Assembly: GCA_963796755.1 (NCBI GenBank)
Contig: CAWCMX010000001.1
Span: forward strand, 1,491,995-1,555,994
Direction of reading: 5' to 3'
Source of the DNA: an uncultured Acidimicrobiia bacterium
GTDB lineage: Bacteria; Actinomycetota; Acidimicrobiia; IMCC26256; JAENVU01
Length of the DNA: 64,000 nt
This document shows positions 12,898 to 56,234 of this stretch, one piece after another; positions within the stretch are counted from its first letter, which is position 1, and every line of letters begins with the position of its first letter. The notes beneath the pieces are model-generated. The model worked only from the letters and a program-made list of their open reading frames with translations, did not search any database and had not been told where the DNA came from. A program made the translations under genes and the position numbers.

Positions 12898-12929
12898 CGA
12901 CTCGCGAGTCGGCGCCGCGTCAGGCCACA

Positions 12930-14356: not shown

Positions 14357-14377
14357 GCCCGCCCGACCGGCTCGCGC

Positions 14378-14839: not shown

Positions 14840-15478
14840 GAACCTTCTTTGCGGGCGCGCCACACCACCGTGGCCGGGAGCAGTGCTCGCCCGCCGTGCT
14901 CCTGGGCCGGCTCGGGCTCGAGGAGCGTGTCGACCCGGAAGCCGGTGCGGCTGAGGCCGGTGAACACCTCGCCGAGCGGGTGCCGGGTCACCAGGTGCGC
15001 CTCGTCGTCGGTCCCGATGTCGATCGGCGAGGTGTCGAAGTACGAGCGGGCGAGGTACGTGCGCCCGAGCGGCAGCGCACCCTCGGGCGCCGGCTCCGTC
15101 TCGACGCCGAGCGCGAACGGGTGCGGGAGCGAGAAGACGAACGGCGCGCCCTGGCGCAGGACCCGCTGCACCTGGCGGAACAGCCGGCCCAGGTCCGACG
15201 ATCTGGGCCAGTGCGCGCGTCGCTGAACGCGAGGTCCACCGAGTCGGCGCGCAGGAACGCGAGGTCCGCCAGGTCGCCCGCGTGCAGCTCGAGGCGCACC
15301 TCGGCCGCCTCGGCCGTGGCGCGCGCGTCGGCGATCTGGTCGGCGGAGCGTCGACGCCAATGACCGTCGCGCCGGCTAGGGCGAAGCGCACCGCGGCGTC
15401 TCCGCAGCCGCAGCCCAGCTCCAGGACGCGCTTGCCCTTCACCGGACCGAGCAGGCGAGCGATCGCGTCAATCTCCAT
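14836..15478 (-). CDS. Class I SAM-dependent methyltransferase; two apparent frameshifts
   Basis: N-terminal SAM motif is [28 protein letters not shown]. The tail ..[34 protein letters not shown] lies in another frame. Confidence 0.75.
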
Positions 15479-16628: not shown

Positions 16629-17291
16629 GCGGTCGCTCCTTCCTGTTCGGGCGCGTTCGGGCTGGAGGTGGGGCCTCCGCCTTCGGGCGTCTGGTCTTCG
16701 CTTGCGATCAAGTCGTCGAGCCACTCGAGGTCGCGCTCGGTGGATCGGTTGCGATGCTCCAAGAGGGAGCGGGTGTAGCGATCGACGGCCGGTCCGCGCG
16801 TGCGGCGGGCCCGGGCGAGGCGGTCGGCCAGCTCGGTGCGCCGGCGCTCGAGGAAGACCAGGCGCGACGCGGGATCGAGGAAGCGGCAGAACGCGAGCTT
16901 CGAGCGAGAAGAGGCGCTCGTCGTCGCCGACGTCGTCGGCGGTGAGCAGCGTCTGGAACTGCTCCTGGCCGATCGGGGTGATGCGGTAGGCCTTGCGGGT
17001 GCGGCGGCCGGCGGGCGCGGGGACGAGGCGGAGGCGGGCGGCGGCGGCCTCGCCCTTGAGCGAGCCGGTGGCCGGCATCGCCGGCACGCCGCAGGGGACT
17101 CGCCGTCGGGAGCCGTCGACGACCTCGATCGCGCCGCTGCGCTCGAGCCGGCGCAGCGCGGGGTAGAGCGAGCCGAACGAGATCCCCCAGAAGGAGCCGA
17201 GCGTCTCGCTCAGCCGCTTCTTGAGCTCGTAGCCGTGGCGGGGCTGCTCCTGCAGCAGCCCGAGGATCGCCAGCTCCAGCACCTCGTGCAC
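16625..17291 (-). CDS. PadR family transcriptional regulator; one apparent frameshift
   Basis: Winged-helix N-terminus is [39 protein letters not shown]. The stop overlaps the ino1 ATG (ATGA). The padR-ino1 pairing matches mycobacterial Rv0047c-Rv0046c. Confidence 0.8.
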
Positions 17292-17350
17292 TCCCCGGAT
17301 TTCGGTCGGATCGGACGGTGTCCCAGTTGCCCGGGACGCCCGACATTGTA

Positions 17351-17383
17351 CTCCTCGATATATCGAATCGATATATCGAGGAG
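17351..17383. promoter_or_regulatory. Perfect 33-bp palindrome in the padR / DUF5318 divergent intergenic region; candidate PadR operator
   Basis: CTCCTCGATATATCGA-A-TCGATATATCGAGGAG, with 16-bp arms and no mismatch. It is AT-rich in a roughly 70% GC context, about 60 bp upstream of padR and about 87 bp upstream of the 17470 start. Confidence 0.6.
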
Positions 17384-17469
17384 CAGTATCGCACATCGGC
17401 GCCCGCCGGGCAACGCACCCCTCCGGGTCGGCGCGCCGGAATGGGTGCTGCGCTGAATACACTTCCTGC

Positions 17470-17835
17470 GTGCCCAGGGGTACCAACTACGCGCTCGCCC
17501 GTCGGGCAGTGCTGCGCGACCTCCGCCGGGGGGTCCGGAGCCGCAACGACGTCTGCGACGCGCATCCCGAGCTGATGCGGGCGGCCCGCAACGTCGGGGA
17601 GCGGGCCGGCATCAAGTGCCCGGTCTGCGAGGGACGCGACCTCTACTACGTCTCCTACGTGTACGGCGACGCGCTCAAGCACGCGAACGGGCGTTGCCTC
17701 TCGTATCCCGGTGAGCTGGAGAAGCTGCGTGCGAAGCACGACGAGTTCGATCGTTACGTCGTCGAGGTCTGCACCGACTGCCGGTGGAACCACCTCGGGG
17801 CGCGCGAGCTGCACGGCCGCCGCCACACGGCCTGA
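17470..17835 (+). CDS. DUF5318-type conserved actinobacterial protein with four Cys
   Basis: Intact 121-aa ORF with CPVC..CTDC pairs. It is divergent from padR, as in other actinobacteria. Confidence 0.7.
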
Positions 17836-17925
17836 TCACGTTCCCCGGAGCGCGAGTTCCGGACCGCGGTCGAATGGTGCGCTCCGGCGGCTCACCACGG
17901 ATCGGGCCGGCCTACGCTCGGCTCC

Positions 17926-18111
17926 GTGACCCGGGGTGAGTGCGAGAACTGCGCGATGGCGGACCAGGAGCTGGTCCGGGTGCATCGGGTCTACGTCACG
18001 CCCGAGAGCTGGGACACCCCGGCGTCCGCGGTCGAGGTCGAAGCGACCGAGCAGTGGTGCGTCTCCTGCTGCACCCAGTACCCCCACGTCGCGATCGACC
18101 GCCCGCAGTAG
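17926..18111 (+). CDS. Small Cys-rich (zinc-ribbon-like) protein of unknown function
   Basis: Intact 61-codon ORF with very high GC at third codon positions. Contains CENC ... CVSCC. Confidence 0.5.
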   Translation: MTRGECENCAMADQELVRVHRVYVTPESWDTPASAVEVEATEQWCVSCCTQYPHVAIDRPQ

Positions 18112-18186
18112 CCCCGAGCGGCAATGGGCGTTACACTGTCGGGCGCTGCCGGGAGCCGTGTGAGCCCTGGACGGCGGAGGGTCGAC

Positions 18187-19099
18187 ATGACCACGGGTTC
18201 TTCCACTGCTCGGGTGCGTCCGATGAGCGCGCCGGACATCACCGCTCGCAAGCGCGAGCGCGCGATGGCGACGGCACGCCGCTCGTGATGGTGACCGCGT
18301 ACGACGCGCCGTCCGCGCGCGTCGTCGACGCGGCCGGGGCCGACATGATCCTCGTCGGCGACTCCCTCGCGATGGTCGTGCTCGGCTACGACGACACGCT
18401 GCAGGTGACGACCGACGACATGGTCCACCACATCGCCGCAGTGGCGCGGACCCGTCCGCGTCCGTTGATCGTCGGCGACCTGCCGTGGCTGAGCTATCAC
18501 GTCTCTCGCGAGGAGACGGTGCGCAACGCCGCCGCGCTCGTGCGCGCGGGTGCCGGAGCGGTGAAGCTCGAAGGCGGTCGCAAGCGGCTCGACGCGGTCG
18601 GCGCGATCCTCGACGCCGAGATCCCGGTGATGGGTCACCTCGGCCTCACGCCGCAGTCGATCCACTGCGCTCGGCGGGTTCCGGGTGCAGGGCAAGCAGC
18701 TGGACTCGGCCCGAGCGATCGTCGACGACGCCGTCGCGCTGGCCGAGGCCGGGTGCTTCGCGCTGGTGCTCGAGTGCGTGCCCGACGGCGTCGCCCGGAT
18801 GGTCACCGACGCGATCGACATCCCGACGATCGGCATCGGCGCCGGGCCGCCACTGCGACGGCCAGGTGCTCGTGTACCACGACCTGCTCGGGCTCGAGGA
18901 CCGGAAGCTGCCGAAGTTCGTGCGCCGGTACGCCGATCTGCGCAGCCGGCCACGCGCGGGGATCGAGCAGTTCGTCGAGGACGTGCGCTCGGGGACGTTC
19001 CCGTCGAGCGACGAGACGTACCACATGACGGACCAGATGGGTGAGGCCTTCGACCTCTCCTCGGACGCCGACGCCGTAGCTGTCCCACCCGCTCGGTAG
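18187..19099 (+). CDS. panB: 3-Methyl-2-oxobutanoate hydroxymethyltransferase; about three apparent frameshifts
   Basis: Motifs seen: [29 protein letters not shown], ..[21 protein letters not shown].., ..[33 protein letters not shown]. Confidence 0.85.
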
Positions 19100-19251
19100 C
19101 GTCCCCGCCGATAGGTCCGTTCGAAGCCTCTGCTAGCCTCCGAAGTTCGTGCACCCCCGGGTGTGCGTGTCCCACCCCTGCTCCTGGCGTCCGATTCGGG
19201 CGATCCATGGAGCCCGCAGCTCGGGCTGCGGTCCGAAGGAGGTACGTGCCC

Positions 19252-19611
19252 ATGCGGCCGTACGAGGTCATGATCATCTTCGACGCGGACCTGGATGAGG
19301 AGATCATCCGATCTGCAGTCGACCGTTCCGTCAAGCTCATCGAGTCGAGGGGTGCCGAGAAGGGCCAGATCGACTTCTGGGGCAAGCGACGGTTCGCCTA
19401 CGAGGTGAAGCACCGCTGGGAGGGCTACTACGTGGTCCTGCAGGCGAAGGCCGAGCCCGCGGCGATGGACGAGCTGCACCGGACGCTCTCCCTTGCCGAC
19501 GAGGTGGTCCGTCACAAGGTGCTGCGCATCCCCGAGCAGGTCTACGGCAAGCTCGCGGGTACCCCCGCGGCCGAGACCCCGCTCACGCGTGACGCCGACG
19601 ACGAGGACTGA
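19252..19611 (+). CDS. rpsF: 30S ribosomal protein S6
   Basis: Reads MRPYEVMIIFDADLDEE..WGKRRFAYEV...GYYVVL. GAAGGAGG lies 9 nt upstream of the ATG. Confidence 0.9.
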   Translation: MRPYEVMIIFDADLDEEIIRSAVDRSVKLIESRGAEKGQIDFWGKRRFAYEVKHRWEGYYVVLQAKAEPAAMDELHRTLSLADEVVRHKVLRIPEQVYGKLAGTPAAETPLTRDADDED

Positions 19612-19685
19612 CTCGAGTCGAACGGCTCCGAGCCGCCCGTCGCGACGGCAGCTGGGAGTGGAACCGATGAACAGGAGACCAGGGA

Positions 19686-20183
19686 ATGGCTGACAACACG
19701 ATCACGGTGGTCGGGAACCTCACTCGGGACCCGGAGATGCGCTACACCGCGTCGGGCCAGGCGAACGCACGCCTGGGCATCGCGGTGAGCCGACGGTGGC
19801 AGAACCGCCAGACGAGCGAGTGGGAGGAGCGCACGAGCTTCTTCAACATCGTCTGCTGGGGCGACATGGCCGAGAACGTCAGCGACTCGATGTCGAAGGG
19901 CACCCGGGTCATGGTGCAGGGCCGGCTCGAGCAGCGCAGCTGGGAGACCGAGCAGGGTGAGAAGCGCAGCGTCGTCGAGATCGTCGCGGACGAGATCGGC
20001 CCCAGCCTGCGCTGGGCGACGGCCGAGGTGAAGCGCTCCGAGCGTCGGGGTGGCGGCGGCCAGGGCGGCAACCAGGGTGGCGGCGACTTCGGGGGCGGCG
20101 GTGGCGGCGGACGTCCCGCCCCTGCCCGGGTGCCCGACGCAGGTGCACCGGCCGACGAGTTCGGCGACGAAGAGCCTTTCTAA
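19686..20183 (+). CDS. ssb: Single-stranded DNA-binding protein
   Basis: Intact 165-aa ORF with an OB-fold N-terminus (ITVVGNLTRDPEMRYT..), a Gly-rich linker and the acidic tail DEEPF. Confidence 0.95.
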   Translation: MADNTITVVGNLTRDPEMRYTASGQANARLGIAVSRRWQNRQTSEWEERTSFFNIVCWGDMAENVSDSMSKGTRVMVQGRLEQRSWETEQGEKRSVVEIVADEIGPSLRWATAEVKRSERRGGGGQGGNQGGGDFGGGGGGGRPAPARVPDAGAPADEFGDEEPF

Positions 20184-20213
20184 GCACGCAAACCGGAACG
20201 GAGCGGCGAGACC

Positions 20214-20710
20214 ATGGCAAGAGATCGCGAACGGCGCGGCAAAGACTCGAAGGCCGCCGACCGCAGGCGCACGCCCAAGAAGAAGGTGTCGATCCTCAAC
20301 CAGGACAGCATCGAGTGGGTCGACTACAAGGACGTGAACCTGCTGCGGCGGTTCATGTCGGAGCGGGCGAAGATCCGGGCGCGCCGCGTGACCGGGCAAC
20401 AACGCGCAGCAGCAGCGCGAGGTCGCACGCGCGATCCGCGTCGCTCGCGAGATGGCGTTGCTGCCCTACAGCGTGCGCCAGGTGACCCAGCGGAGCCGGA
20501 GTGGTCGTCGCGACCGGGGCGACCGTGCGGACCTGTCCGCGCCGATGCCGACGCCGGACGCACCGCCGCCCGTCGTCGGGCGAGCTCGAGGAGCTTCCCG
20601 AGGGCGTGACGCTCGAGGCGGTCGACGAGACGGGCCTCGAGACCGGTGTGCCCGAGGCGGTTGCCGCGGACGCCGGTGAGTCGGCTGCGGAGTCGGGAGC
20701 CTCGGAATGA
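20214..20710 (+). CDS. rpsR: 30S ribosomal protein S18 with an apparent long C-terminal extension; two apparent frameshifts
   Basis: S18 core is [26 protein letters not shown].. ..REMALLPYS. Reading continues through Arg-rich then acidic sequence to a TGA at 20708-20710, which overlaps the rplI ATG. Confidence 0.75.
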
Positions 20711-29699: not shown

Positions 29700-32593
29700 T
29701 CAGTCGACGTCGGGCACGAAGATGTCGAACGTGACCTCGTCGGCCGGCATCGGCTTGGCGAAGTAGTAGCCCTGGTAGGTGTCGCAGCCGAGTCCGTGCA
29801 GCGCCTTGAGCTGGTCGATCGTCTCGACGCCCTCCGCGATGACGGAGAGGTGCAGCGACTGGGTCAGGCCCACCACGGCCCGCACGATCGCCTCGCTCTC
29901 GGCGTCACGGCCGAGGCCGTCGACGAAGGAGCGGTCGATCTTCAGCGTGTCGACCGGGAAGCGCTTCAGGTAGGCGAGCGACGAGTAGCCGGTGCCGAAG
30001 TCGTCGATGACGAGGTGCACGCCGAGCTCGCGGATCGCGTTCGAGCGTCCGCGCCGCGCCGGCCGCGTCGTCCATCAGCGTGCTCTCGGTGATCTCGAGC
30101 CACAACGCGTCCGGCTCCAGGCCCGAGCGGGTGAGCGCGGCGGCGATGTTCGCGACGACGTCGGGGTCGCCGAGCTGGCGGCCGGAGAGGTTGACGCTGA
30201 TGTGGAGATCCGCCGCGGCGGGGACCGTGGTCTTCCAGCGCGCGGCCTCGGCGCACGCCTTGTTCAGCACCCAGATGCCGAGCGGCAGGATCAGACCGGA
30301 CTCCTCGGCGATCGGGATGAACTCGTCCGGCGTGATCGGACCGTTCGGGTGCGGCCAGCGGGCGAGCGCCTCGAGCCCGATGATCCCGTCGGTCCCGTAG
30401 CCGACGATCGGCTGGTAGAAGACCGCGAGCTCGTCGTTGTCGAGCGCGAGACGCAGGTCGCGCTCGATCTCGGTACGGCGCTGGGCGCGCTCGCGCAGCG
30501 TGTCGTCGAGCAGCTCGACGCGCGCCCGGCCGCGCTCCTTGGCGGTGTACATCGCGACGTCGGCGTCGCGCAGCATCGCCTCGGGGTCGGCGAGCCCGCT
30601 CTCGACGCACGACACTCCGACGCTGGCGGTGATGACGACGTCGCGCCCGGAGGAGACGGGGATCGGCTGCGCGATGACGTCCGCGATCTCGCAGGCCCGG
30701 CGGCGGGCGGACTCGATGTCGGCGAGGTCGGGGCAGAGGACGACGAACTCGTCGCCGGAGAGCCGGGCCACCGTGTCGATGGAGCGGGTCGTCTGCTGGA
30801 GCCGCCGGGCGACCGCGGTCAGCACCTCGTCGCCGACGAGGTGGCCCTGCGTGTCGTTGACGACCTTGAACCGGTCGAGGTCGATGAAGAGCACACCGAC
30901 CCGCGAACCACCCCGCCGCGCGTGGTCCAGCGTCTGGCGGAGGTTCTCGATGAAGACGGGACGGTTGGCGAGGCCCGTCAGCGCGTCGTGGGTGGCCTGG
31001 TAGTTCAGCTGGCGCTCGGTCCGGCGGCGCTCGGTGACGTCCGAGAACGAGCAGACCATGCCGTACGGGAGGAGGTCGTCGTGGCGCAGCGGTCGTGAGT
31101 TCAGGGAGAGCCAGCGCTGCTCCCGGTCCAGGAGCTCGATGCCGATCAGGACGTTCGTGAACGACTCGCCGGTGCGCAACGTCCGCACGGTCGGGTGCTC
31201 GTCGTCGGTGATGAGGAACCCGTCGGGGTGGCGGGCGTGGAGCTCGTCGCTGAACACGGTGTCGAGGCGCTCGCCGACCATGATCCGCCGGCCCATGATG
31301 CTCTCGGCGGCCCGGTTGGCCGCGGTGATGACGCCCTGGTCGTCGCTGACCACGATGCCCTCCTCGAGGGACGCGACGACCGCGGTGTACCGCTCTTCGA
31401 GGGCCCGCCGCGCGGCTTCGGACCGCCGCCGTTCGGTGATGTCGGCGCAGACGGCGACCGCGCCGGTGACCTGGTGGTCCTGGTCGAGCACGAGTGCCAC
31501 GGAGATCCGCACTTCGAGCAGGGTGCCGTCGGACCGGCGGTGCACCGTCTCGAGGTGCTTCGCCGACTCGAGACCGAGCCGGGAGTCGGCGCCGACGACA
31601 TCGGCGAACTTCTGGCCGATGACCGCGTCCCGGGTCCAGCCGTACATCTCTTCTGCGGCCGGGTTCCAGCTGTCGATCCGGCCGTCGGCGTCGAGTCCGA
31701 TGATCGCGTCGGAGACGTGCTCGACGAGCTTGGCCTGGTAGCGCATCGTCTCTTCGGCCTTGCGGCGCAGCGAGAGGTCGCGCAGGATCACCTGGTACGC
31801 GGGGTCGACCGTCCCACTTGGTGCGCACGCTGAGCGACTCGACGACGATGTTGCTGCCGTCGAGGCGCACGAGGGTCGCTTCGGCCGGCTTGGTCGCCGC
31901 CTCGTTCTCCTTCAGCGACGCGATCCGCTCGAGCGTCTCGAGCAGGGAGTCGGGGTGGATGAACTGGGTCAGCGACTGGCCCAGGTAGTCGTTCATGTCG
32001 TCGACGCCGACGAAGTCGGCCGCGGCCTTGTTCCCCCAGCGGATCAGCCCGTCCTCGTGCACGACGATGCCGTCCGGGCTCAGCTCGAGGAGCAGGCGGT
32101 AGCGGTCGGTCTGCTCCTGGAGCGCCTGCTCGGCCTCGCGGTCGTCCGTGACATCGGCAACGACGCCGACGCAACCGGTGATGGAACCGCCGGCGCCGAA
32201 CACCGGCTGGGCGCGGACGAGCAGCACCCGCTCCTTGCCGTCGCGATCGAGGATGACCCGCTCGAGCTCGTAGTGGTCCCAGGGACCGGCGCCTTCGACG
32301 ACGGTGATCACCGGATCGACGAGCCACGTCGCGAGATCGGTGCACGCCTCGCCACCGGGCAGCTTGAACGTCTCGGGGTCCGCCCCGAGGACCAGCGTCA
32401 GGGAACCCCGCCAGCGGATCGGGTGGACGGCGCGGTTGTGCTCCCACGTCGCCATGCGGGCGGTCGCGAGCGCGAGGTCATGACAGGCGGCCAGCCCACG
32501 AGCCTGCCGCGACGCGATCGACGTGGGCGCGGCACCTTCGCGAGACCGGCGATCCGGTCCTCCGTTGAGTAGATCTTTCGTGAGCCTTCCCAT
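29700..32593 (-). CDS. Multi-PAS diguanylate cyclase/phosphodiesterase (GGDEF + EAL); two apparent frameshifts near 31800 and 30030
   Basis: Several PAS-like repeats are followed by the GGDEF region ([22 protein letters not shown]) and the EAL region ([27 protein letters not shown].. ..[37 protein letters not shown]). Confidence 0.85.
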
Positions 32594-36913: not shown

Positions 36914-36957
36914 TGGAGCGGGTGACGAGAATCGAACTCGCGTTCTCAGCTTGGGAA
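36914..36957 (-). repeat. att repeat: displaced copy of the tRNA-Gly 3' half, from anticodon loop to CCA
   Basis: TGGAGCGGGTGACGAGAATCGAACTCGCGTTCTCAGCTTGGGAA is identical (44/44) to 42796-42839. The sequences diverge immediately beyond the repeat. Confidence 0.9.
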
Positions 36958-37051
36958 TTTCACCGGACGGGCTCCGGCGAACGCTCGTGAACGGGTTCCG
37001 CAGGTCGATGCCCATCTGCGAATAAGGGCGACCGGTGGCGGCCCTCTGCGG

Positions 37052-37072
37052 CCGCGGGATGTCCGCGGGATG
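37052..37072 (+). repeat. Tandem CCGCGGGATG x2 (11-bp phase); candidate integrase/Xis arm-type sites
   Basis: CCGCGGGATG-T-CCGCGGGATG(GA) lies about 95-115 bp inside the left element end. The 12-mer CCGCGGGATGGA recurs at 42718-42729 near the right end. Confidence 0.55.
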
Positions 37073-37229
37073 GATACGGTCGGGGTGCAGTCCCGACCGC
37101 GTCGCGTCGCCCAGGCCGCGACTCTTCCAGCACCGCGGCCTTTTGGGGTGTCGAACCAGGCCGATGTGGTCGGCGTTCTGTGCGGCCTCGCTCGTGGCGG
37201 CGTGTACCCGTAGCGGGCATTATGCGTGG

Positions 37230-37616
37230 ATGAGTGATCAGCAGAACCGCCTCGTAGCCGTCATCTTGGAGGTCTCGGACCTCGACCGTTCAGTGGACCT
37301 ATACCGGTACGGCTTTGGACTCGACCTTCACGTCAGTGACCATCATGGAGATGACCGCTGGACGAGCGGCCGTCATGGCGCGACCTCTTGGACGGATGGC
37401 GCGTACATCCACTTCGCGCTGTACGCAACGAAGGACGGGACGGCAGCCGAGCGTGCCCAGATCGCATTTTCTGTCCACGATCTGGACGAAGCCCATCGTC
37501 GAGCGACTGAGTCCGGTGCGGAGGTGGTGCACGAACCGAAGGCCCAACCATGGGGAAGGTCCGCTCGGTATCGGGACTTCGACGGCAACATCATCGAGCT
37601 AACACAGCGCACATAG
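37230..37616 (+). CDS. VOC (glyoxalase/bleomycin-resistance/dioxygenase fold) family protein; element cargo
   Basis: Intact 128-aa reading from ATG 37230: LVAVILEVSDLDRSVDLYRYGFGL.. ..IAFSVHDLDEAHRRATESGAEVVHEP..QPWGRSARYRDFDGNIIEL. Confidence 0.75.
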   Translation: MSDQQNRLVAVILEVSDLDRSVDLYRYGFGLDLHVSDHHGDDRWTSGRHGATSWTDGAYIHFALYATKDGTAAERAQIAFSVHDLDEAHRRATESGAEVVHEPKAQPWGRSARYRDFDGNIIELTQRT

Positions 37617-37687
37617 CTTCCGTTCCGTCGCGGCGAACGATCGGACATGCTGTGCGTCCTCGGGACCTGAGCGCGGAGGCTTTCATC

Positions 37688-38251
37688 ATGGACTGGAGCG
37701 CACCGTTCGATTGGCGTGGCTTAACCGGCGACGTAGTGGTTGAGTGCGTCGCCAACGACGACCCAGAGGGGTACGAGACTTGGTCGTCAGCTGCGTACGG
37801 CTTTCCGGTGTGCACTGCGACGGTGAGGTACCCGCGCCGTGGCTACGGCGCGATGTTCGGATGGGTGCAGCTTGTACGTTCGACTGACAACAGTTCACAC
37901 GGAGAGGGGTTCGAACCGGATCCGTTCGCGCTGTTCGGCGACGCGCAGTCGCCGTACTGCTGGTACGGGACAGAGCCGACGCTCTTCGACGCTCCGAGCC
38001 GTCCCACGGCGGAACCGCTGACGTGGCTGGCCTACAGCTTTCTCGCGACGACACCCGTCGATGAGATCCTGAACGGAAGTCCCCGCCGCGTCGTGCCGCT
38101 GCTCGGCTTCGGATGGGGTTTCGAGGTTCGGTCGGATACCGTCGAACTGGGCGCCATCGTGCAATTGGCAGACCGCGATTGGAGGTCGGTTGTTCCGGTT
38201 CTCCGGGCTGCGTATCCCAGTCCCTCCTGGAGCTTCGCCGACTCTCTCTGA
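37688..38251 (+). CDS. Hypothetical protein (187 aa), no family recognised; element cargo
   Basis: Intact ORF from ATG 37688 (MDWSAPFDWRGLTGDVVVECVANDDPEGYETW..), Trp/aromatic-rich, with no TM segment or signal peptide. The local GC drop suggests foreign origin. Confidence 0.6.
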   Translation: MDWSAPFDWRGLTGDVVVECVANDDPEGYETWSSAAYGFPVCTATVRYPRRGYGAMFGWVQLVRSTDNSSHGEGFEPDPFALFGDAQSPYCWYGTEPTLFDAPSRPTAEPLTWLAYSFLATTPVDEILNGSPRRVVPLLGFGWGFEVRSDTVELGAIVQLADRDWRSVVPVLRAAYPSPSWSFADSL

Positions 38252-38319
38252 CCGCCACGTCCCGATCGAGAACGCACAGATCTGCCGATCCGTTTGTTCG
38301 GATCGGGCATCCTGTACTG

Positions 38320-38505
38320 GTGACAGTGGGCCAGCCTGACGAGAAGTCCGACGCGCCGTGCCCAGTATGCGGGCATCCCGAGACCGCGCATACCCATTGG
38401 GCGGCTGACTCGACTTGCGATGGCTGGGCGCACTGCACGGTCGGTACCGAGGCCGCGGGCGACGCCTGTCAATGTTGGCGATCATGGCCGAAGCTGGAGA
38501 GCTGA
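38320..38505 (+). CDS. Possible small Cys/His-rich (zinc-binding-like) protein; element cargo
   Basis: From GTG 38320: VTVGQPDEKSDAPCPVCGHPETAHTHWAADSTCDGWAHCTVGTEAAGDACQCW... The start is uncertain and the call is weakly supported. Confidence 0.3.
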   Translation: MTVGQPDEKSDAPCPVCGHPETAHTHWAADSTCDGWAHCTVGTEAAGDACQCWRSWPKLES

Positions 38506-38623
38506 GCGGAACCGCCGATCGGTTGCAGGACCGCACAGAACTGCCGATAGGGCTGGGTGGTGCAACGCTCGAGGCGCACAAGATGCCGCGCCCATAACTC
38601 GCCCATTGAGCTGCCGGAGCTCG

Positions 38624-41171
38624 TTACCAGCCGAGGTCGATGCCGTCGTCGATCTCGGCGACGTCCTTGCCGGGGACGTCCCGCCGGTCCCGGTCGAGCG
38701 TCGCGGGGAGGGTGATCCGCGTGGGAGCCCTACCGCTGAGCCGGGCGGTCGCGAGTTCTTGGCGTTCGCTACGCCACAGGGCAGCGCGGACGCCGTCGAT
38801 CGGGTCGTCGGGCTCGATCGCACCGTGGTGGTCTACCTCGGGCTCGTCGTCGACGCTGACGTAGAGACGGTTCTCGTAGCGACCGCGCGAGAGCGCGGTG
38901 TAACCGGCTTCGGCGTACAGGTCGTCGGTTCCGAGGACGTACGCGCGGTCGCAGGTCAGGCCTTGGGCCTTGTGCACGGTCATCGCGTACGCGTGGTCGA
39001 TGTGACCGGCCTCGAGATACGCGTCCGGCACCAGTCGCGGCCGGTCTTCGCCGTCGAAACGGACGAGGAACCCGTGCAGCTCGCAGCTGGTGATGGTGCC
39101 GCGCTGCCCGTTGATCAACCCGTGGCGGGAGTCGTTGTGCAGAGTGAGGATCAGATCCCCGACCGCATACGGGCGGTCGAGGACATGGACCGGCCAGTCG
39201 TCCACGACCCCCTCGCTGACGAGGACAGCGCGCGGCGGTGTCGTTGAGTGTGGTGACGTCGCTGCGGTGGAGGGCGAGCATGATTGTGTCTTCCCCCCGG
39301 CGGGTCGCCGTCCTCCAGTCCGCGACGACCTGTTCGACCGCGACCTTCCGGTCGGGGGTCTCGATGATCTGGCCGTGTTCGGCGAGCCGTTCGATCGCCT
39401 CATCAACCTGGCCCGCGCGGAGCTCGGCGAGGGCTTGACGTTCCACCGGATCTTGTTGGCGGCGGTTCTCGACGAGTTCCACCGCGCCTAACCGTTCGGC
39501 GAGGCCGGTGAACAGCCCGCCGGCTTCGATCTCGGGCAACTGGCATGGATCCCCGACCAACACGACTTTGGCGCGTGCTTGGTGGGCGTGGTCGAGGAGC
39601 CGGCCGAGTTTGCGGGTGCCGATCATCGCGGCCTCGTCTGCAACCACGACGGTCCGGCTCGTGAGTCTCGGGATGCCGGGGCTGTCGAGGTCGATCAGGA
39701 GCCGGTCGAGCGTCACCGAGGGGATCTCGGCGTCGTCTTGGAGCTGGCGGGCTGCCCTCGCGGCGAGGGCGCAGCCGATGACGGTGAACCCGGCGTCGTC
39801 CCAGGCTTCTCGTGCGACGCCGAGAGCATGCGTCTTCCCGGAACCCGCAGCGCCGACCACCACGGCGATGGGGGAACCGTCAGCGGTGAGGGTCTCGACC
39901 ATCGCCCGCTGCTCATCGGAGAGCTCCGGATGGGCGAGGAGGGTCGCCTCCGGTTCGGGGACCACACCCCGCTCGTCGTCGCTGTTCTCCTCCGCTTCGG
40001 CCTGGTTGAGGAGCCGGTCTTCGAGCGCCAGCAGATCCGGCGTCGAGTAGCAGACACCGAAGTGACCGACGCCGAGCGGCACGACTCGCTCGCTGGAGAG
40101 CAGCTGATCGGCGTGGGCCTCGAGCTCGGCGACGGTCGCGCCCTGGTGGGCGTGGCCGGCGAGGGTCTGGAGGACGTGCCGCCGATCGAACGTCGAGCGG
40201 TGTTCGGTCAGCTCCGCACAGACCTGGGTGACAGACACCAGGGAAGCCTCGGACAGCTCGCGAGGCACATGCGGTGAACGGGCGAGGTCGGCTTGGAGCA
40301 CGCCGGTCGTGAAGCCGAGCACGTCGGCGCGTTCGACCCAGTCGGCGTGCATCGAGAACGCGTCCACGTCCGGGGTCTTCGCCGGGCGGGTCCGCAACGT
40401 CACCGTGCGCGCCTCCCTCGGTGACGCCTCCGGTCCGAGCTCGGCTTCGATCTGAGCCCGCCGGCGGGAGAACTCGCGCCGCACCTCGAGGGGGACGGCG
40501 GTGAGGTCGCCTGTGCCCTTCACCGTCCGTTCCCATTCGACGGTCAGACGGGCGGTAAGCCCTGCCCGCAGCTCCGCCTGATATTGAAACCCGGCGGTGC
40601 GGGCCTGCCCGTACAGGTGACGGGCATCCAACGCCGACCACCGACCATCCGGACCCTGCGCCGCGTTCGCGACCACCACATGCGTGTGGAGCTGCGGATC
40701 ACCGGCCCGGCTCGTCCGATGCCGGAACGCCGCGCCGACCAGCCCGCCGCCGATGAGGCGTTCCGTGCCGTTGTGCCCACGGCGGACGAACACCGCTTCC
40801 CGCTCGAGATACCCGACCGCGGCGGCGATCGCGTCTTGGTGGGCGGCGACGATCTCCCGCGCCGAGCTCTGGGTCACCCAACGCCCACGCAGACCGACAC
40901 CGACTTCGGCGCCGAGAACGTCAGATCCAACGCAGGCACCCGGCGGTTCGGTCGGCCCAGTGCGCTCCCGTCCAGAGGGTTCACACCGTGGAGCAGCGAG
41001 ACGAACGCGTCGTCGCTCACCAACCCTTAGAGCTCGAGCTCGCGGCACCGGTACCGATCCAGTAGCCGGCGACCTCGCCCGCGCTCGAGGTAGTACTCCT
41101 CGACGCCATGCGCGACCGCATCGAGGTAATACGCCTCCTGGCCTCGCGCGAAGCTTCCCGATCGACAACAC
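38624..41171 (-). CDS. TrwC/MobF-type relaxase fused to a RecD-like helicase; three or more apparent frameshifts
   Basis: The start (GTG 41171) reads VLSIGKL. Then AYYLDAVAHGVEEYYLERG and the relaxase His motif AGDPQLHTHVVVANAAQG. Helicase motifs are Walker A VVVGAAGSGKTHAL, VVVADEAAMIG and VLVGDPCQLPEI, with the C-terminal IDHAYAMTVHKAQGLT. Confidence 0.8.
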
Positions 41172-41299
41172 ACCACGGCTATGCGCGTCGCCACCCACTC
41201 GCGTCGCGACAACCCCGCATTGAAAATGCAAGTGCGTGGATCACATCGGGGTGGGGGCGCTGTCGCGAAACCGAAGGTGCGAAGCGCATAAGAGACGAC

Positions 41300-41536
41300 A
41301 TGAATGAAGACTCGAGCGCAGGGCACGAAGTGGAACGAGGGGCTGGGGTGGGGGCCGACGTCGAGCCTCTGTTGCTGACGATCCCGGAGGCCGCGAGGGC
41401 GTTGGCGATCGGCCGGACGACGCTTTACGAGCTGATCGGCGATCGACGGATCGAGGTCGTGCACATCGGACGCTGCGCCCGCGTTCCCCTCGACGCGATA
41501 CGAACGTTCGTCGAGGATCAGCGAGTCAGCCGATGA
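41300..41536 (+). CDS. xis: Excisionase / helix-turn-helix DNA-binding protein
   Basis: Reads ..LLTIPEAARALAIGRTTLYELIGDRRIEVVHIGRCARVPLDAIRTFV.. and lies directly upstream of int on the same strand. Confidence 0.75.
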   Translation: MNEDSSAGHEVERGAGVGADVEPLLLTIPEAARALAIGRTTLYELIGDRRIEVVHIGRCARVPLDAIRTFVEDQRVSR

Positions 41537-41608
41537 CCAGGTACCGTGGCGATCCTTCCCTCCTCAGATCATGGCTCGTCGACGCCGGCCCGCTCGGGGG
41601 AGATTGAC

Positions 41609-42647
41609 GTGGCGCACATCGCGAAACGATCGACGCGGGGCGGCCCTCGCTACGAGGTCCGGTATCGCGCACCTGACGGGCGCGAACGGTCGAGGACCTT
41701 TCGCACGCGCCGTGACGCGGACCGGTTCGTCGTCACGATCGAAGCCGACATGTTGCGCGGCGCATGGGTGGATCCCCAGGCTGGTCGGATCACCCTCGAG
41801 GAGTACGCGAGGACCTGGCTGGCCACACGACCGGGGCTACTCCTCCGCACCCGCGAGACCTACGAGTCTCAGCTGCGGCGTCACATCCTCCCGGCTCTTG
41901 GTCCCGTCAACCTCAATGCCCTCACGCCCCGTTTCATTCGAGAGTGGTACAGGCAACCTTGTGGCGTCGAAGTCCGTCAGCGCCAACACCGCGGCCAAGT
42001 GCTATCGCCTGCTCCGAACGATTCTCGGAACCGCGGTGCACGACGAGCTCATCGTCTCGAACCCGTGCAAGCTGGCTGGCGCGGGCGTTGAGCGAGCGGC
42101 GGAGCGGCCGACTGCCACAGTGGTGGAGGTGCTCGCAGCCGCAGAGGGGATGCCGCCGCACATGCGCCTCCTCGTCCTCGTTGCGGGCTTCTGTGGGCTC
42201 CGGGTCGGAGAGCTGCTGGGACTCGAGCGGCGCCACGTCAATCTTCTCCACGGCCTCCTCACCGTCGAGCAGCAGGAGCACCAGTTGAGCGACGGTCGGT
42301 TGATCCTCGGCCCGCCGAAGAGCGAGGCGGGTCGACGGACCATCTCCGTTCCGCCCTTCCTCCTCGTCGACGTCGAGGCTCATCTCGACGCGTTCACCGC
42401 GGTTCCTCCCGAGGCGCGCGTGTTCAGAGGTGAGCGCGGCGGAGCGTTGCGACGTCATGTGATCCAGAAGCACTGGGAGCGCGCCCGCAGCGCGGCGGGC
42501 CTGCCGGCGACCTTTCGATTCCACGACCTGCGGCATACCGCCAACACCCTCACGGCAGCGAGCGGCGCGAGCACGAAGGAGCTCATGCACCGCATGGGTC
42601 ACGCGTCCTCGCAGGCCGCGATTCGTTATCAGCACGCGACGACGTGA
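41609..42647 (+). CDS. int: Tyrosine-type site-specific integrase; one apparent frameshift near 41940 and a probable second at the 3' end
   Basis: GTG 41609 follows GGGGGAG. The N-terminal SAM-like domain reads ITLEEYARTWL..YESQLRRHILPALG. The catalytic region reads GLRVGELLGLERRHV.., FRFHDLRHTANTL, MGHASSQAAIRYQH. The tail (RDASLARALGDLVEA) continues in ORF 42644..42844. Confidence 0.85.
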
Positions 42648-42717
42648 AGCGAGACGCGTCGTTGGCTCGTGCCCTCGGCGACCTCGTCGAGGCGTCCCGA
42701 TGGGCCTCGTGGGACAC

Positions 42718-42729
42718 CCGCGGGATGGA
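42718..42729 (+). repeat. Third copy of the CCGCGGGATGGA arm-type motif
   Basis: This is the same 12-mer, in the same orientation, as 37063-37074. It lies about 67-78 bp from the core repeat at the right end. Confidence 0.5.
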
Positions 42730-42795
42730 CGGCGTCGAGAGCCTCGAAGATGGAGCCGCGATTGAAGATTCGTTGCCGGTGACCAGCGACGATGT

Positions 42796-42869
42796 TGGAG
42801 CGGGTGACGAGAATCGAACTCGCGTTCTCAGCTTGGGAAGCTGATGTTCTGCCTCTGAACTACACCCGC
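42796..42869 (-). tRNA. tRNA-Gly (anticodon CCC), CCA encoded
   Basis: Minus strand reads GCGGGTG-TA-GTTC-AGAGGCA-GAAC-A-TCAGC-TTCCCAA-GCTGA-GAAC-GCGAG-TTCGATT-CTCGT-CACCCGC-T-CCA. This folds as a 74-nt cloverleaf whose anticodon loop is TT-CCC-AA. Confidence 0.9.
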
Positions 42870-44191: not shown

Positions 44192-44258
44192 CCGGCTCCG
44201 GTCACGACGTGTCCGACTTCTTCAAGACCTCGAAATCGGATCTTCGTAGGCTGGCCCC

Positions 44259-44661
44259 ATGACACCCACCTTCTTCTTCATCGGCATCGTGGTCGCAGAC
44301 ATGGAGGCGTCGCTGGCCTTCTACCGGAGGGTCGGCCTCGAGATTCCCGCTGACGCCGACGGCCAGCCCCACGTCGACATCGAGCTCCCCGGAGGGCTGC
44401 ATGTCGCTTGGGACACGGAGACCACCATCCGCTCCTTCGACGAGTCCTGGGTGCGGCCGTCCGGCGGCCATCGCATCGCGCTCGGCGTTCGCGTGCGGCA
44501 CTCCGGCCGACGTCGACGCGACCTATGCCGAGCTGGTCGGATCGGGGGTCACCGGCCACCTCGCGCCCTGGGACGCGTTCTGGGGTCAACGGTACGCGGT
44601 CGTCCTGGACCCGGACGGCAACCACGTCGAGCTGTGCGCCCCGATCGACGTCACGTCATGA
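44259..44661 (+). CDS. VOC/glyoxalase family protein; one apparent frameshift near 44480
   Basis: Reads FFFIGIVVADMEASLAFYRRVGLEIP.., then ..DVDATYAELVGSGVTGHLAPWDAFWGQRYAVVLDPDGNHVEL. Confidence 0.7.
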
Positions 44662-45325
44662 GCTCGGTGAGCGGCACCCCCGCCATGTCCCTGATCTCAC
44701 GCGACAGGTGGGGCTGGTCCGCATAGCCCGCGCGGACCGCAGAGTCGGCGGTGCGCGCACCCCGCCGGATGAGGTCGAGCGCGCGTTGCATGCGCAAGAT
44801 CCGGTGGAGGGTCTTGGTGCCGTAGCCGAACGCGGCGGTGCTCCGGCGTTGCAGCTGACGGGGGCTGTACCCGACCCGGCGGGCGATCGTCGCGCTGTTG
44901 CACCCGGCTCGGGCAAGGGCAACGACGTCGTCGATGAGCACGGCGGCATCATCCCCCGGAGCGCAACGACGCAGCGCGACGTCTTCGAGGGTCACCGCAG
45001 GATCCGAGCTCGCCACGAGGAGATCCGTGATGTGCCGCACCTCGTCGGGAGCCCACACGGCGTCCAACGGAACGCGCTGGTTCGTGAACGCGTCGGCCGG
45101 AGCGCCGAGGACCCGCGGCGCGAACCCTGGTGCGAACCGCAAGCCGACGAGTGACGAGTCACGCCCCGAGCGAAACACGTGCGCACGCGTATCGGGCCCC
45201 GCGATGACGACGGCATGGCCGTCCCAGAGCAGGTCCATGCAGCCGTCCGGAAGGACGCGGACCCCGTCGCCGGTCGAGCGCGACGACCAGATGAAGCCCC
45301 CCTGCACTCGACTCGGTCGCTCCAT
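44651..45325 (-). CDS. AraC family transcriptional regulator
   Basis: The 224-aa reading from ATG 45325 carries a C-terminal AraC HTH (..ATIARRVGYSPRQLQRRSTAAFGYGTKTLHRILRMQRAL..AGYADQPHLSREIRDMAGV). Confidence 0.75.
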   Translation of the reverse strand: MERPSRVQGGFIWSSRSTGDGVRVLPDGCMDLLWDGHAVVIAGPDTRAHVFRSGRDSSLVGLRFAPGFAPRVLGAPADAFTNQRVPLDAVWAPDEVRHITDLLVASSDPAVTLEDVALRRCAPGDDAAVLIDDVVALARAGCNSATIARRVGYSPRQLQRRSTAAFGYGTKTLHRILRMQRALDLIRRGARTADSAVRAGYADQPHLSREIRDMAGVPLTELMT

Positions 45326-45372
45326 GTACACGACACGATCTTGCCATCTGGTCCGGAGTCCGGACGAAGGAG

Positions 45373-47605
45373 CTAGACGCCGGGCTTGCGTTCGATGGTG
45401 ACGGGTGAGACGAGCGTGCTCTCGTTCTCCAGCGCCTCGAGGAGCATCTCCGCGATGTCCTGGACCTTCACGTCCTCGTCCTTGCCCTCGCCCTTCACGC
45501 CGTCGTCCATCATCACGTAGCAGAAGGGGCACGCCACCGCGATCCGCTCCGCACCGGTCGCGATCGCCTCCTGCGCGCGCTCGACGTTCACCTTCTTGCC
45601 GATCGTCTCTTCCATCCACATGCGCGCGCCGCCGGCACCACAGCACATGCCCTTCGTGCCGTTGCGGGGCATCTCGACGATGTCGATCCCCTTGAGGTTG
45701 CCGATCACGTTGCGCGGCGCGAGGTACACGTCGTTGTGGCGGCCGAGGTAGCACGAGTCGTGGTAGGTGACCCGCTCGGCGAGCGACGCGCCGGCCATGG
45801 ACAGCCGACCGTCGGCGATCAGCTCCATCAGCAGCTCGCGAGTGGTGCACGACCTCGTAGTTGCCGCCGAGCTGCGGGTACTCGTTCTTCAACGTGTTGA
45901 AGCAGTGCGGGCACTGCGTGATGATCTTGCGCACCCCGAGCCCGTCGAGCGCCTCGATGTTCTGCATCGCGAGCATCTGGAAGATGTACTCGTTGCCCGA
46001 GCGGCGCGCGGGGTCTCCGGTGCAGAGCTCGCTCGGACCGAGGATCGCGAAGTCGATGTTCGCCCGCTGCAGCAGCTTGCGCGACGGCGCGGCTGGTCTT
46101 CTTGTTGCGATCGTCGAAGGAGCCCGCGCACCCGATCCAATACAGGTACTCGTGGTCGAGGTCTCCGCCGGGGTCGACGATCTCGACGCCCTCGAGGTCG
46201 GCCGACCAGTCGCCCCGCTCGGCCTGGTTCATCCCGTAGACGTTGCCGGAGTTCTCCATCGACCGATAGGTGTTGCCGAGCTCGACGGGGAAGTCGCTCT
46301 CCATCAGGGAGAGGTATCGGCGCATGTCGAGGATCTTGTCGAGGATCTCGATGTTCACCGGGCAGATCTCGTCGCACGCCTTGCACGTCGTGCACGACCA
46401 CAGCTCGGCGGAGGTGATCCGCTCGAAGAGGTTGTCCGCCGTGACCCTGATCTCGATGTCGGTGCCGACCGGAGGTGTCACCGGAGGGGTGCCGGTCGCG
46501 GCCATGACCTCGCCGGTCTTCAGCACGATCTCGCGCGGGTCGAGGGGCTTGCCCGGTCGCGTGCGCCGGGCACACGGACGTGCACCGCCCACAGATCGTG
46601 CAGGCGTCCGTGTCGAACAGCTGCTTCCAGGTGAAGTCCTCGACCGTCGACGCGCCGAACGTCTCGAGCTCGGTCTCCATGAGGTTCGGCATCTCGCGCA
46701 TCGCGCCCTTGGGGCGCGGGCGGTCCTTCAGGTACATGTTCATCGGGCTCGTGATCATGTGGCGCAGCATCGTGGTCGGCAGGATCACGAGGAAGGCGAG
46801 GAACGCGACGACGTGGACGCCCCAGGACCAGCGGTGCGCGTCCCGCAGCCCTCCGAGGGTCCAGCCGTCGACGACGTGCGAGAGCGCCCAGCCGACGAAG
46901 GACCACTTCTCGAAGTTCGCCGCCGGGCCGGTCGCGCTGCGCAGCGCCGCGATGCGGAAGGCCTCGGTGGTGAACCCGGTGACGGCGATGACGAGGAACG
47001 TCACCAGGATCACGAGGTGCTCGGGCTTGGTCTTGATGCGGATCCGGTAGGGGCGCTGGCCGTACCGCCGGGCGAACGCCCACAGGATCCCGATGAGGAA
47101 GATGAGCCCGAACAGGTCGCCGGTGAACGCGTAGCGCCTCGTAGGTCCGGCCGTGCAGGAACTTCAGCGAGCCCGGCAGCTGGTGGTCGATCTCGAGGAC
47201 GACCGTGATGACGAAGAGGACCAGGAAGCCGAAGTAGATGAAGGAGTGCATGATCCCGGCCGCCGGGTCCCGCAGCAACGTGCGCATCCAGACGCCCCTG
47301 CGGAAGTCCCGCATGCGCCGGTGGAGGTTGCCCTTGTTGGTGCGCCGGTTGTCCGGCTTGCCCCGTTCGTAGTTGCGCACCCGCAGCGAGACCAGCCAGG
47401 AGACGAGGAACAGCCCGGTGGCGACCGCGAGGTAGAAGGCCACCTCGAGTGGCCTCGGGATGTTGAAGAACACCTCGCGCTGGATCGGCGAGTCGTGGTG
47501 CCAGCCCGTCAGCTCCGGGGCGATGCCCGATGCGAGGGTCCCGAGCGCGGCGAGGAAGCCGATGAGCAGGACGGTCTGATGCGGCCGAGGCAGGTACCTG
47601 CGCAT
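45373..47605 (-). CDS. Membrane-anchored (Fe-S)-binding oxidoreductase: NarI-like TM domain, 2x[4Fe-4S] and two CCG domains, HdrD/Rv0338c-like; about four apparent frameshifts
   Basis: TM N-terminus, then ferredoxin motifs CTICGRCTSVCP and CTTCKACDEICP. CCG-type motifs are YWIGCAG.., ITQCPHCFNTL, YHDSCYLGR and VACPFCY. Confidence 0.8.
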
Positions 47606-54868: not shown

Positions 54869-54910
54869 CCCCGGCGTGCGCTTCGACGAGCCGACTAGCC
54901 TGTACCCAAC

Positions 54911-56234
54911 GTGAGCGCGAACAGATCAAGGAGCGCCGCGTGCCTGGGGCCGGTAATCGTCGGGACCCAGTGGGGCGACGAAGGCAAGGGTCGGTTCACC
55001 GACTATCTGGCCAAGGAAGCTTCGCTGTGCGTCCGGTACCAGGGCGGACACAACGCCGGTCACACCCTCGTGGTGGACGGCGAGGTGTTCAAGCTGCAGC
55101 TCGTGCCGAGCGGTGTCCTCTACCCCTGGGTCGTGCCCGTCATCGGCAACGGCGTGGTCGTGGACCCGGCCGTCCTGCTCGACGAGCTGGACATGCTCGA
55201 GACCAAGGGCATCGACAGCCGCCGCATCCGGCTGTCCGGCAACGCGCACCTGATCATGCCGTACCACCAGGAGCTCGATCGGCTCACCGAGCGCTACCTC
55301 GGCAAGAACAAGCTCGGCACCACCAAGCGCGGGATCGGCCCGACGTACGCGGACAAGGCGATGCGCGTCGGCCTCCGGGTGCAGGACCTGCTGGACCCGA
55401 AGATCTTCCGCGAGAAGCTCGACCTCGTGCTGCGCGAGAAGAACGGTGTGCTCACCAAGGTCTACAACCGACTGCCGATGAGCGCCGACGACATCGCGGC
55501 GCAGTACCTCGGCTACGTGGACCGGCCTCGCGCCGCTGATCGACGACACCGTGCACCTGGTGCACGAAGCACTCGACATCGGTCAGTGGGTCCTGTTCGA
55601 GAGCGCGCAGGCGACCTATCTCGACCTCGACCACGGCACGTATCCGTTCGTGACGTCCAGCAACCCGGTGGCCGGAGGTGTCGGTGCCGGTGCGGGGGTC
55701 GGCCCGCGCGCGATCGAGCGCATCACGGGGATCGTCAAGGCGTACGTGACCCGGGTCGGCAGTGGCCCCTTCCCGACCGAGCTCTTCGAGGGTGACGAAG
55801 TCGGCGACGTGCTGGTCGAGCGGGGCCGCGAGTTCGGTACCAACACCGGCCGCCGGCGCCGGCCGGGCTGGCTCGACCTCGTGATGCTCAAGCACGCGAC
55901 GCGCCTCAACACCTGCACCGAGCTCGCCATCACCAAGCTCGACGTGCTGTCGCCGTTGCCCGAGCTGAAGGTGTGCGTCGCGTACGAAGACGAATCCGGC
56001 ACCCGGTACGACCACGTTCCGTACCACCAATCGGTCCTGCACAAGGTGCGACCGATCTACGAGACGCTGCCCGGTTGGCAGGTCGACGTCGAGCGGGCCG
56101 AGCGGATCGAGGATCTTCCCGCTGCGGCGCGCGACTACGTGCACTTCATCGAGCAGTACACCGGCGTGCACGTGAGCTTCGTGTCGGTCGGTCCCGCGCG
56201 CGACCAGTGCGTCGTGCTGCCCCGCGCCGCCTAG
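54911..56234 (+). CDS. purA: Adenylosuccinate synthase; one apparent frameshift near 55525 and an uncertain start
   Basis: Reads [36 protein letters not shown].., then ..[43 protein letters not shown] plus GTG at 54940 would fit if one G of the GGGG run were an insertion. Confidence 0.9.

Follow-up and report, generated by a model that had tools for sequence, protein, structure and literature searches.

The 64-kb window analysed here, the whole of the DNA stretch taken from contig CAWCMX010000001.1 of an uncultured Acidimicrobiia bacterium (assembly GCA_963796755.1), carries a 5.9-kb element lying between two copies of the 3' half of tRNA-Gly(CCC). Between these copies are genes for a tyrosine integrase (int) and an excisionase (xis) and, divergent from them, a gene for a MobF relaxase fused to a helicase, with a candidate origin of transfer (oriT) in the gap between xis and the relaxase gene. 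The intact tRNA-Gly(CCC) gene lies at 42796-42869 on the minus strand, where the original prediction, made by reading the DNA without database searches, had placed it, and is the sole tRNA that ARAGORN detected in the window. Its 3' 44 nt (42796-42839, minus strand), which form the int-proximal attachment (att) repeat, recur at 36914-36957, also on the minus strand, at the end far from int, as a displaced copy outside any tRNA gene recognised by ARAGORN. The direct repeat had been described as perfect, and the repeat finder likewise returned 44 nt at 100% identity, a stretch that begins in the anticodon loop of the tRNA and takes in the encoded CCA. As the shuffled sequence of a related 21.6-kb locus (L087, below) never gave a 44-mer match, a chance origin of the repeat is negligible. 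GC content in the repeat-bounded interval is 63-69%, with its minimum (63-65%) at 37000-38500, against 70% for the window. A site-specific integrase together with flanking att repeats at a defined tRNA target is the arrangement of a canonical integrative mobilizable element (IME).

Integration site and recombination genes

The integrase gene (41609-42844, plus strand), interrupted by frame breaks at ~41955 and ~42644, encodes a protein of ~410 aa with a SAM-like N-terminal domain and a catalytic domain (Pfam Phage_int_SAM_3 and Phage_integrase) in which the R, HxxR and Y residues are all present, confirming the tyrosine integrase that had been recognised beside the tRNA. Over its three frames it shares 72-74% identity with the integrases encoded by L004 and L005, two other elements in tRNA-Gly(CCC). 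The att repeat encodes the final 15 integrase codons, and the TGA stop (42842-42844) lies 3 nt past the repeat, within the tRNA anticodon stem and thus in the chromosomal part of the tRNA. On the excised circle the int reading frame would continue into the other end of the element (36958-37025), exchanging the last residue for a 23-residue tail, a net gain of 22, and the integrated and excised forms would yield integrases with differing C-termini; the same layout is found in L004. The 78-aa product of xis (41300-41536, plus strand) is a helix-turn-helix (HTH) excisionase or recombination directionality factor (RDF), as had been supposed, matching Pfam HTH_17 (E = 3e-9) and TIGR01764 (39.1 bits, cut-off 28.8), and it is 64% identical to the excisionase of L004.

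The 64 kb contain two exact copies of the 11-mer CGCGGGATGGA, both within the element and each near one of its ends. The int-proximal occurrence follows a degenerate copy inside the int coding sequence (42708-42729, plus strand) and is 110 nt from the end of the element; the distal one and a preceding near-copy, at 139/150 nt from the distal end, form tandem copies of CGCGGGATG(TC/GA) in non-coding DNA (37053-37074, plus strand). Comparable distances are seen in relatives, at 110/121 nt (int side) and 139 nt (int-distal side) in L005 and 110/121 nt in L004. Lying near both ends with a spacing as in a relative, the 11-mers are candidate arm-type sites for the integrase, a reading favoured because the distal copies are non-coding. 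Excision would be expected to join 42839 to 36958, giving the attP junction …CTTGGGAA|TTTCACCGG… on the circle, and to leave a repaired attB in which 36913 is joined to 42796.

Relaxase-helicase, candidate origin of transfer and remaining gene content

The largest gene of the element (38624-41171, minus strand, start and stop verified) encodes, once its frames are corrected, a protein of ~849 aa, in keeping with the roughly 850-aa TrwC-type relaxase fused to a RecD-like helicase that had been proposed. Pfam recognises TrwC (E = 2e-48), AAA_30 (E = 1e-54) and UvrD_C_2, the NF041492 model "MobF family relaxase" scores 237.6 bits against a cut-off of 100, TIGR02686 scores 150.9 against a cut-off of 145.5, and a partial RecD2 match falls in the C-terminal superfamily 1B (SF1B, RecD/TraI-like) helicase. 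The three-histidine motif (FRHRTSRAGDPQLHTHVVVAN; HTHVVVAN in the original prediction, and found in the protein) and two N-terminal tyrosine pairs (YY...YY in GQEAYYLDAVAHGVEEYY) occupy columns that are invariant across 30 relatives, the motif tabulated for the relaxase being HRTSRAGDPQLHTH. With a profile score above threshold, the histidine motif, both tyrosine pairs and the SF1B helicase, the protein is, as judged from its sequence, a member of the MOBF family. Relaxase relatives number thousands (~820-1080 aa), the nearest in the database being P0001, which is intact and 84% identical. Among 72,556 plasmid records the closest relaxases are those of small Corynebacterium plasmids, with ~32% identity over >90% of the length.

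The candidate oriT nic region (41213-41242, plus strand, antisense to the relaxase gene) is situated 42 nt upstream of the relaxase gene, in the 128 nt that separate this gene from the divergent xis. It reads CCCC-GCATT-GAA-AATGC-AAGTGCGTG-GATC on the plus strand, in which the hairpin GCATT-GAA-AATGC (41217-41229) is followed by a conserved 9-mer, AAGTGCGTG (41230-41238), and the nick is predicted directly after the 9-mer; the corresponding oligonucleotide for the predicted nic site is GCATCGCTGATGCAAATGCGTGGATC. A plain MAFFT alignment and a regular expression coped poorly with the variable hairpin loop, and a covariance model was used instead, built from 12 ungapped examples and searched against 1.42 Mb on both strands. 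It gave 21 matches at E < 0.01, one per locus and nine of them outside the seed, all 30-170 nt upstream of a relaxase start and on the antisense strand, the window motif (37.8 bits) being among the top scores. Pairing is maintained in 96.9% of the hairpin cells, two positions are T-A in some loci and C-G in others, amounting to 13 and 8 double changes, and the observed covariation score was reached by no shuffle. The nic site of plasmid R388 comprises a 5-bp hairpin, a short loop and nine single-stranded nucleotides before the cut (PMC4176350), and it too lies on the strand antisense to the relaxase gene. The hairpin-plus-9-mer of the element, beyond whose nine nucleotides conservation ends, has this geometry and is a likely transfer origin. 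Upstream of the longer (~1040-aa) relaxases of the Solirubrobacterales type another sequence is conserved, …CAACAGCCAACAGCAACCACCCTCACGCCnnATCAC…, ~60-110 nt before the relaxase start (L029, L037-L039, L043, L051, L056, L058, L063, L067, L080, L082 and others), which is probably a second oriT type belonging to that branch.

What else the element encodes is little. Pfam and NCBIfam scans identified no coupling protein, type IV secretion system (T4SS) component, FtsK/TraB translocase or Rep protein among its open reading frames (ORFs), as had been claimed from the letters, nor did they find a replication initiator of the RepSA, RepAM or prim-pol kinds. Every ORF of 100 aa or more in the repeat-bounded interval is either assigned or without a match, and there is no space for a second protein of at least 450 aa beside the relaxase. 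VirB4, VirD4 and pore genes are missing both from the element and from the 64-kb window, and an integrative and conjugative element (ICE) of the T4SS type is rejected on this ground. An actinomycete integrative and conjugative element (AICE) is rejected because neither an FtsK/SpoIIIE-like TraB translocase nor a replication initiator lies between the repeats, and a prophage or satellite because there are no phage genes and every ORF is accounted for.

An adjoining conjugation module is likewise rejected, as the ORFs of the flanks and of the remaining window are housekeeping genes, and a full module, which the original prediction had named as a possible neighbour, is nowhere within the 64 kb. 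On its left the element is flanked by genes for a sulfatase-like membrane protein, a ketoacyl synthase (KAS), NucS and a GGDEF-EAL protein; on its right are dcd, tag and genes for a VOC protein, a regulator of the AraC type, a CCG protein, DnaK-GrpE-DnaJ, ClpB, PurA and PurB; and in the outer window MurJ, thioredoxin/reductase-type genes, rpsF-ssb-rplI-dnaB and purL-type genes. The three cargo ORFs reported for the element fall in its GC minimum, the third being doubtful. The first (37230-37616, plus strand) encodes a 128-aa VOC/glyoxalase-fold protein (Pfam Glyoxalase, E = 2.5e-15) that stays below the cut-off of each specific NCBIfam model, and the second (37688-38251, plus strand) is an open frame for a 187-aa protein with no Pfam, NCBIfam or PADLOC match. 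The third, from the ORF list (38113-38505, plus strand), is small, Cys-rich, of uncertain start and overlaps the second; it has only a sub-threshold zinc-ribbon match and, lying downstream of the relaxase, showed no kinship with the small ORF in the same position in L001. A defence role for this cargo was considered and rejected, PADLOC giving no match for any of the three.

Related loci and the state of this copy

The locus L087, part of a 1.06-Mb contig, was reached by protein search with the left-flank gene; on either side it aligns with the DNA flanking the element at 92-96% identity. L087 contains a single tRNA-Gly(CCC) and a single 44-mer, and lacks int, xis and relaxase. The space from the tRNA to the sulfatase gene is taken up by another segment, of 3.8 kb, which encodes a SAICAR-synthase-like protein, a hydrolase and a LysR regulator and has no second att copy. 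Directly after the tRNA (L087 6019-6047) are ~24 nt corresponding, with one mismatch, to the 3' end of the window int (42772-42795), a stretch that appears to be left over from an earlier element of this family. Since L087 shares the flanks and lacks int, xis and relaxase, the element is polymorphic between close relatives. The two arrangements indicate that the tRNA-Gly(CCC) locus is a hotspot of turnover and not a simple occupied/empty pair; a scan of metagenome contigs with the left-flank protein for a pristine empty site gave one weak, irrelevant match, and an exact look-up of this protein returned no entry. A second small indel polymorphism is present beside the tRNA-dcd-tag cluster, where L087 lacks 1.17 kb of the window (44193-45365) that holds genes for an AraC-family regulator and, frameshifted, a VOC/glyoxalase protein.

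The assembled relaxase gene contains six frame breaks and one TAA, five of the breaks in the first ~110 codons and the sixth at ~39233. Nucleotide alignment with four relatives shows that these breaks, like those in int, are single-base indels in non-homopolymer contexts, and that the TAA, in the N-terminal part, replaces GAC via two substitutions. Because this in-frame TAA is substitution-derived and did not arise by an indel, real decay of the relaxase is possible, and the element might then be a relic, the remnant of a dead IME that has kept its att repeats and motifs while relaxase and int are truly pseudogenised. Such a relic would be in line with the breaks in both genes and with the turnover and earlier-element relic at the same tRNA locus in L087; we nevertheless think it unlikely, although worth keeping in mind. 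The cluster of frameshifts in the relaxase N-terminus, considered as a sign of decay, is not significant at the true indel rate (~2-3 per kb). Housekeeping genes are also split, those for the CCG iron-sulfur protein (four breaks), a cNMP-binding protein (one), an EAL protein, purA, clpB and dnaB, and dnaB, purA, clpB and CCG cannot all be dead. Aligned with the 96% identical L087 over 4.6 kb, the window shows 16 gaps of a single base outside homopolymers, eight of which are bases that it has in excess, or ~1.7-3.5 per kb, which matches the type and rate of the indels in int and relaxase (~2.1 per kb) and bears out the window-wide indel noise that the original prediction had held responsible. 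The 44-nt repeats, still 100% identical, and the high-scoring oriT also point to a recent or active copy. As the frame breaks agree in type and rate with those of housekeeping genes, the sequence is compatible with a functional copy as well as with a dead one. Stretches of split genes include 45376-47593, 29703-31911 and 54899-56231, L087 has the same kind of error, and the two assemblies are probably unpolished long-read metagenome assemblies.

Scanning one genome per species yielded 80 further loci, all in metagenome-assembled genomes and mostly from Acidimicrobiia, Solirubrobacterales/Thermoleophilia and Nitriliruptoria, and 85 related loci were compared in all, with flanks limited to 10 kb. 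The contigs of the nearest relaxase relatives have the same divergent int-(xis)-relaxase order, and an integrase homologue lies at most 5 kb from the relaxase in 48 of the 85 loci. As in the window, tRNA 3'-half repeats bracket the relaxase in 20 loci, delimiting elements of 5.5-19 kb; the repeats are 41-54 nt long (22 nt in L054) and the target tRNAs are Gly, Phe, Met, Leu, Glu, Cys and Lys. The relaxase most similar to that of the window (84% identity) is from L001, whose 5.46-kb element occupies tRNA-Phe and has open frames for the two core genes called, int and relaxase. L004 and L005 have a second copy of the same 44-mer 9.6 and 19.1 kb away and share the backbone of the window element but carry other cargo, and L003 has the same host synteny (DnaJ-GrpE-DnaK … CCG … dcd). 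Only int and relaxase are universal among the delimited elements, and there is no conserved membrane protein. Their large cargo is either defence-like (MmeI, GmrSD, SMODS, TIR, HEPN, DUF4238) or consists of transposases, and no coupling-protein, VirB4 or FtsK family is listed among the large cargo proteins of the 20 delimited relatives. The 19-kb element of L005 holds a defence-like block (12801-20453) with a SMODS cyclase, an M78 peptidase, an HNH/ResIII helicase and DUF4238.

A VirD4-type coupling protein does stand beside the relaxase at eight of the 85 loci (L020, L021, L025, L027, L072, L074, L078 and L085), none of them repeat-delimited, so the test for coupling proteins has power and T4SS-type coupling proteins exist in these lineages. 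Such relatives may be IMEs with a coupling protein of their own. Within 10 kb the neighbours in L021, L025, L027 and L074 are housekeeping or defence genes (a prokaryotic Argonaute, pAgo/Piwi, in L025, methylases, glutamine synthetase), with VirB4 not seen; nor was VirB4 seen among 44 large proteins, as judged by their 25 strongest families.

Bearing on the function of the relaxase, these coupling-protein neighbours count against the idea that the element is an integrated rolling-circle replicon, whose relaxase-helicase acts mainly as a replication initiator, with the hairpin as its origin and transfer as an incidental matter. MobF relaxases are indeed HUH endonucleases like rolling-circle Rep proteins, this one has a helicase of its own, no other replication gene was found in the element and the nearest plasmid-borne relatives come from small Corynebacterium plasmids (10-45 kb) that carry mobF. 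Relaxase-driven replication of excised ICEs is, moreover, established. Yet the protein scores above the cut-off of the MobF equivalog model, its two tyrosine pairs and three-histidine motif are those of conjugative relaxases, the hairpin lies 5' of a conserved single-stranded stretch in the geometry of a nic site, and replication after excision is compatible with mobilisation and no alternative to it. We therefore judge a replicon of this kind improbable.

A further possibility is that the relaxase-helicase together with a host channel (chromosomal FtsK/SpoIIIE or a type VII-like one) suffices for transfer and no helper is needed, which would accord with the lack of a detected coupling protein in the 20 other repeat-delimited relatives, with VirB4 being unseen in the 85 loci, those with coupling proteins included, and with the very wide spread of the family where T4SS elements are poorly documented. 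To our knowledge transfer of this sort has no precedent, the family has no membrane protein in common, and the relatives were seen with 10-kb flanks and their VirB4 check covered the 25 strongest families; self-transmission of a minimal element is accordingly very improbable indeed. A route other than a classical helper T4SS is conceivable because VirB4 was not seen at the 85 loci and the loci with coupling proteins lie amid housekeeping and defence genes. It would be a long shot to hold that int-xis-oriT-MobF elements are an undescribed phylum-wide family and a main vehicle of defence genes in uncultured Actinomycetota (Acidimicrobiia, Thermoleophilia, Nitriliruptoria), moving perhaps by other means than a classical helper T4SS.

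Proposed mobilisation by a helper and relation to known systems

The element is very probably a canonical IME, one of a family common in uncultured Actinomycetota. The original prediction of a minimal relaxase-dependent IME that must rely on a helper is supported by the gene content, by L087 and by the 20 relatives without a coupling protein, and each part of it that could be tested stood; the element is less unusual than was implied, as relaxase-only IMEs are known, and so are MOBF IMEs in Mesorhizobium. Several points weigh against this interpretation. L087 provides no clean empty site, being occupied by the other 3.8-kb segment and the ~24-nt int-like stretch. No helper T4SS is visible in the 64 kb, and VirB4 went unseen in the 85 related loci in a check that was not exhaustive. 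The hairpin could be a palindromic operator instead of an oriT, and this copy, with its breaks in relaxase and int and the TAA, could be dead. Finally, we infer excision, nicking and the dynamics of transfer from parts that alone are visible in the DNA.

In the proposed course of events, the arrangement of the repeats indicates that Int brought about recombination between the chromosomal tRNA gene and a copy of the tRNA-Gly(CCC) 3' half carried by the element; the outcome is an intact chromosomal tRNA with the displaced 3' half 5.9 kb away. Int and Xis would excise the element as a circle, on which the relaxase would nick its own oriT, becoming covalently joined to the 5' end while its own helicase domain unwinds the DNA. 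The coupling protein and T4SS of a co-resident conjugative element would then receive the relaxase-DNA complex, and the relaxase gene would enter the recipient last, an orientation of oriT found also in F and R388. Rolling-circle replication of the excised circle, driven by the relaxase, is a likely addition. Once in the recipient, the element would be put back into tRNA-Gly(CCC) by Int. For excision and for mobilisation by a helper, the absence of the element from L087 is indirect support.

Canonical IMEs encode their own integrase and relaxase, have an oriT and lack genes for a coupling protein or mating pore, as exemplified by NBU1, Tn4451/Tn4555 and ATE-1 (PMC5704250). The review of Guedon et al. 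(2017) describes canonical IMEs with MobP, MobQ, MobV and MobC relaxases, none with MobF, and a single actinobacterial one, ATE-1 (MobV) (PMC5704250). The present element shares their modules, the oriT as a candidate, and their predicted lifestyle, small size and tyrosine integrase at a tRNA 3' end, and differs from those of the review in its MobF relaxase-helicase and Acidimicrobiia-like host. Closer in relaxase family are the IMEMl-R88B-like IMEs of Mesorhizobium, which are MOBF, tRNA-adjacent and from 5,814 bp upward in size (Colombi et al. 2021; PMC8627217). They too are chromosomal, small and inserted at a tRNA site, with linked RDF and relaxase genes and an oriT (a candidate in the present element) between divergent genes. 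However, they have a Ti-like traACD locus, accessory relaxosome proteins and Alphaproteobacteria as hosts, whereas the present element has a TrwC/TraI-type relaxase, no counterpart of TraC or TraD and an actinobacterial host.

The relaxase resembles R388 TrwC in having at its N-terminus an HUH relaxase domain, with a three-histidine motif and two pairs of tyrosines, that is fused to an SF1B helicase. R388, by contrast, is a plasmid with TrwA, the TrwB coupling protein and a full T4SS, the identity is low, with a match through the family profile only, and the nick in our element is a predicted one. Like the Corynebacterium plasmids with mobF/traA (e.g. NC_005001.1, a 15.1-kb C. diphtheriae plasmid, where the match is the annotated mobF gene), it is small and actinobacterial. 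As autonomous replicons, those plasmids would have their own replication genes and no integrase, and the similarity of the relaxases is distant (~32%). pNG2 is a further small Corynebacterium plasmid with a mobF/traA relaxase. The AICEs pSAM2 and SLP1 have in common with the element an actinobacterial host, a tyrosine integrase with Xis, insertion at a tRNA 3' end and small size. They differ in mechanism: AICEs move double-stranded DNA via an FtsK-like TraB, carry Rep and have no relaxase, a contrast already drawn in the original prediction and sustained here by the presence of the relaxase in an element where TraB and Rep were not found.

Surveys with ICEfinder list many unexamined IMEs in Actinobacteriota (PMC10201445), and our literature search found no paper on elements with relaxase and integrase at tRNA genes in Acidimicrobiia. 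The element thus belongs to a well-known kind, the IME, and apparently represents an undescribed family in its host group. The window itself, with its correctly recognised genomic island in a noisy assembly, is of modest practical value; what the analysis contributes is the family, the finding that the presence of the element varies between close relatives, a predicted nic site and candidate arm sites. These bear on gene flow in Acidimicrobiia and Thermoleophilia, abundant bacteria of soil and water known nearly exclusively from metagenomes, in which it is barely charted. Among the cargo of the relatives are restriction enzymes, a cyclase domain (SMODS) of the type found in the cyclic-oligonucleotide-based antiphage signalling system (CBASS), and TIR and HEPN proteins. 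The predicted nic site lends itself to a simple biochemical test and to searches for helper elements and for passengers that lack a relaxase. With four functional parts (att site, int-xis, candidate oriT and relaxase) in <4 kb and boundaries that can be read from tRNA repeats, the family provides a compact model of a mobilizable element.

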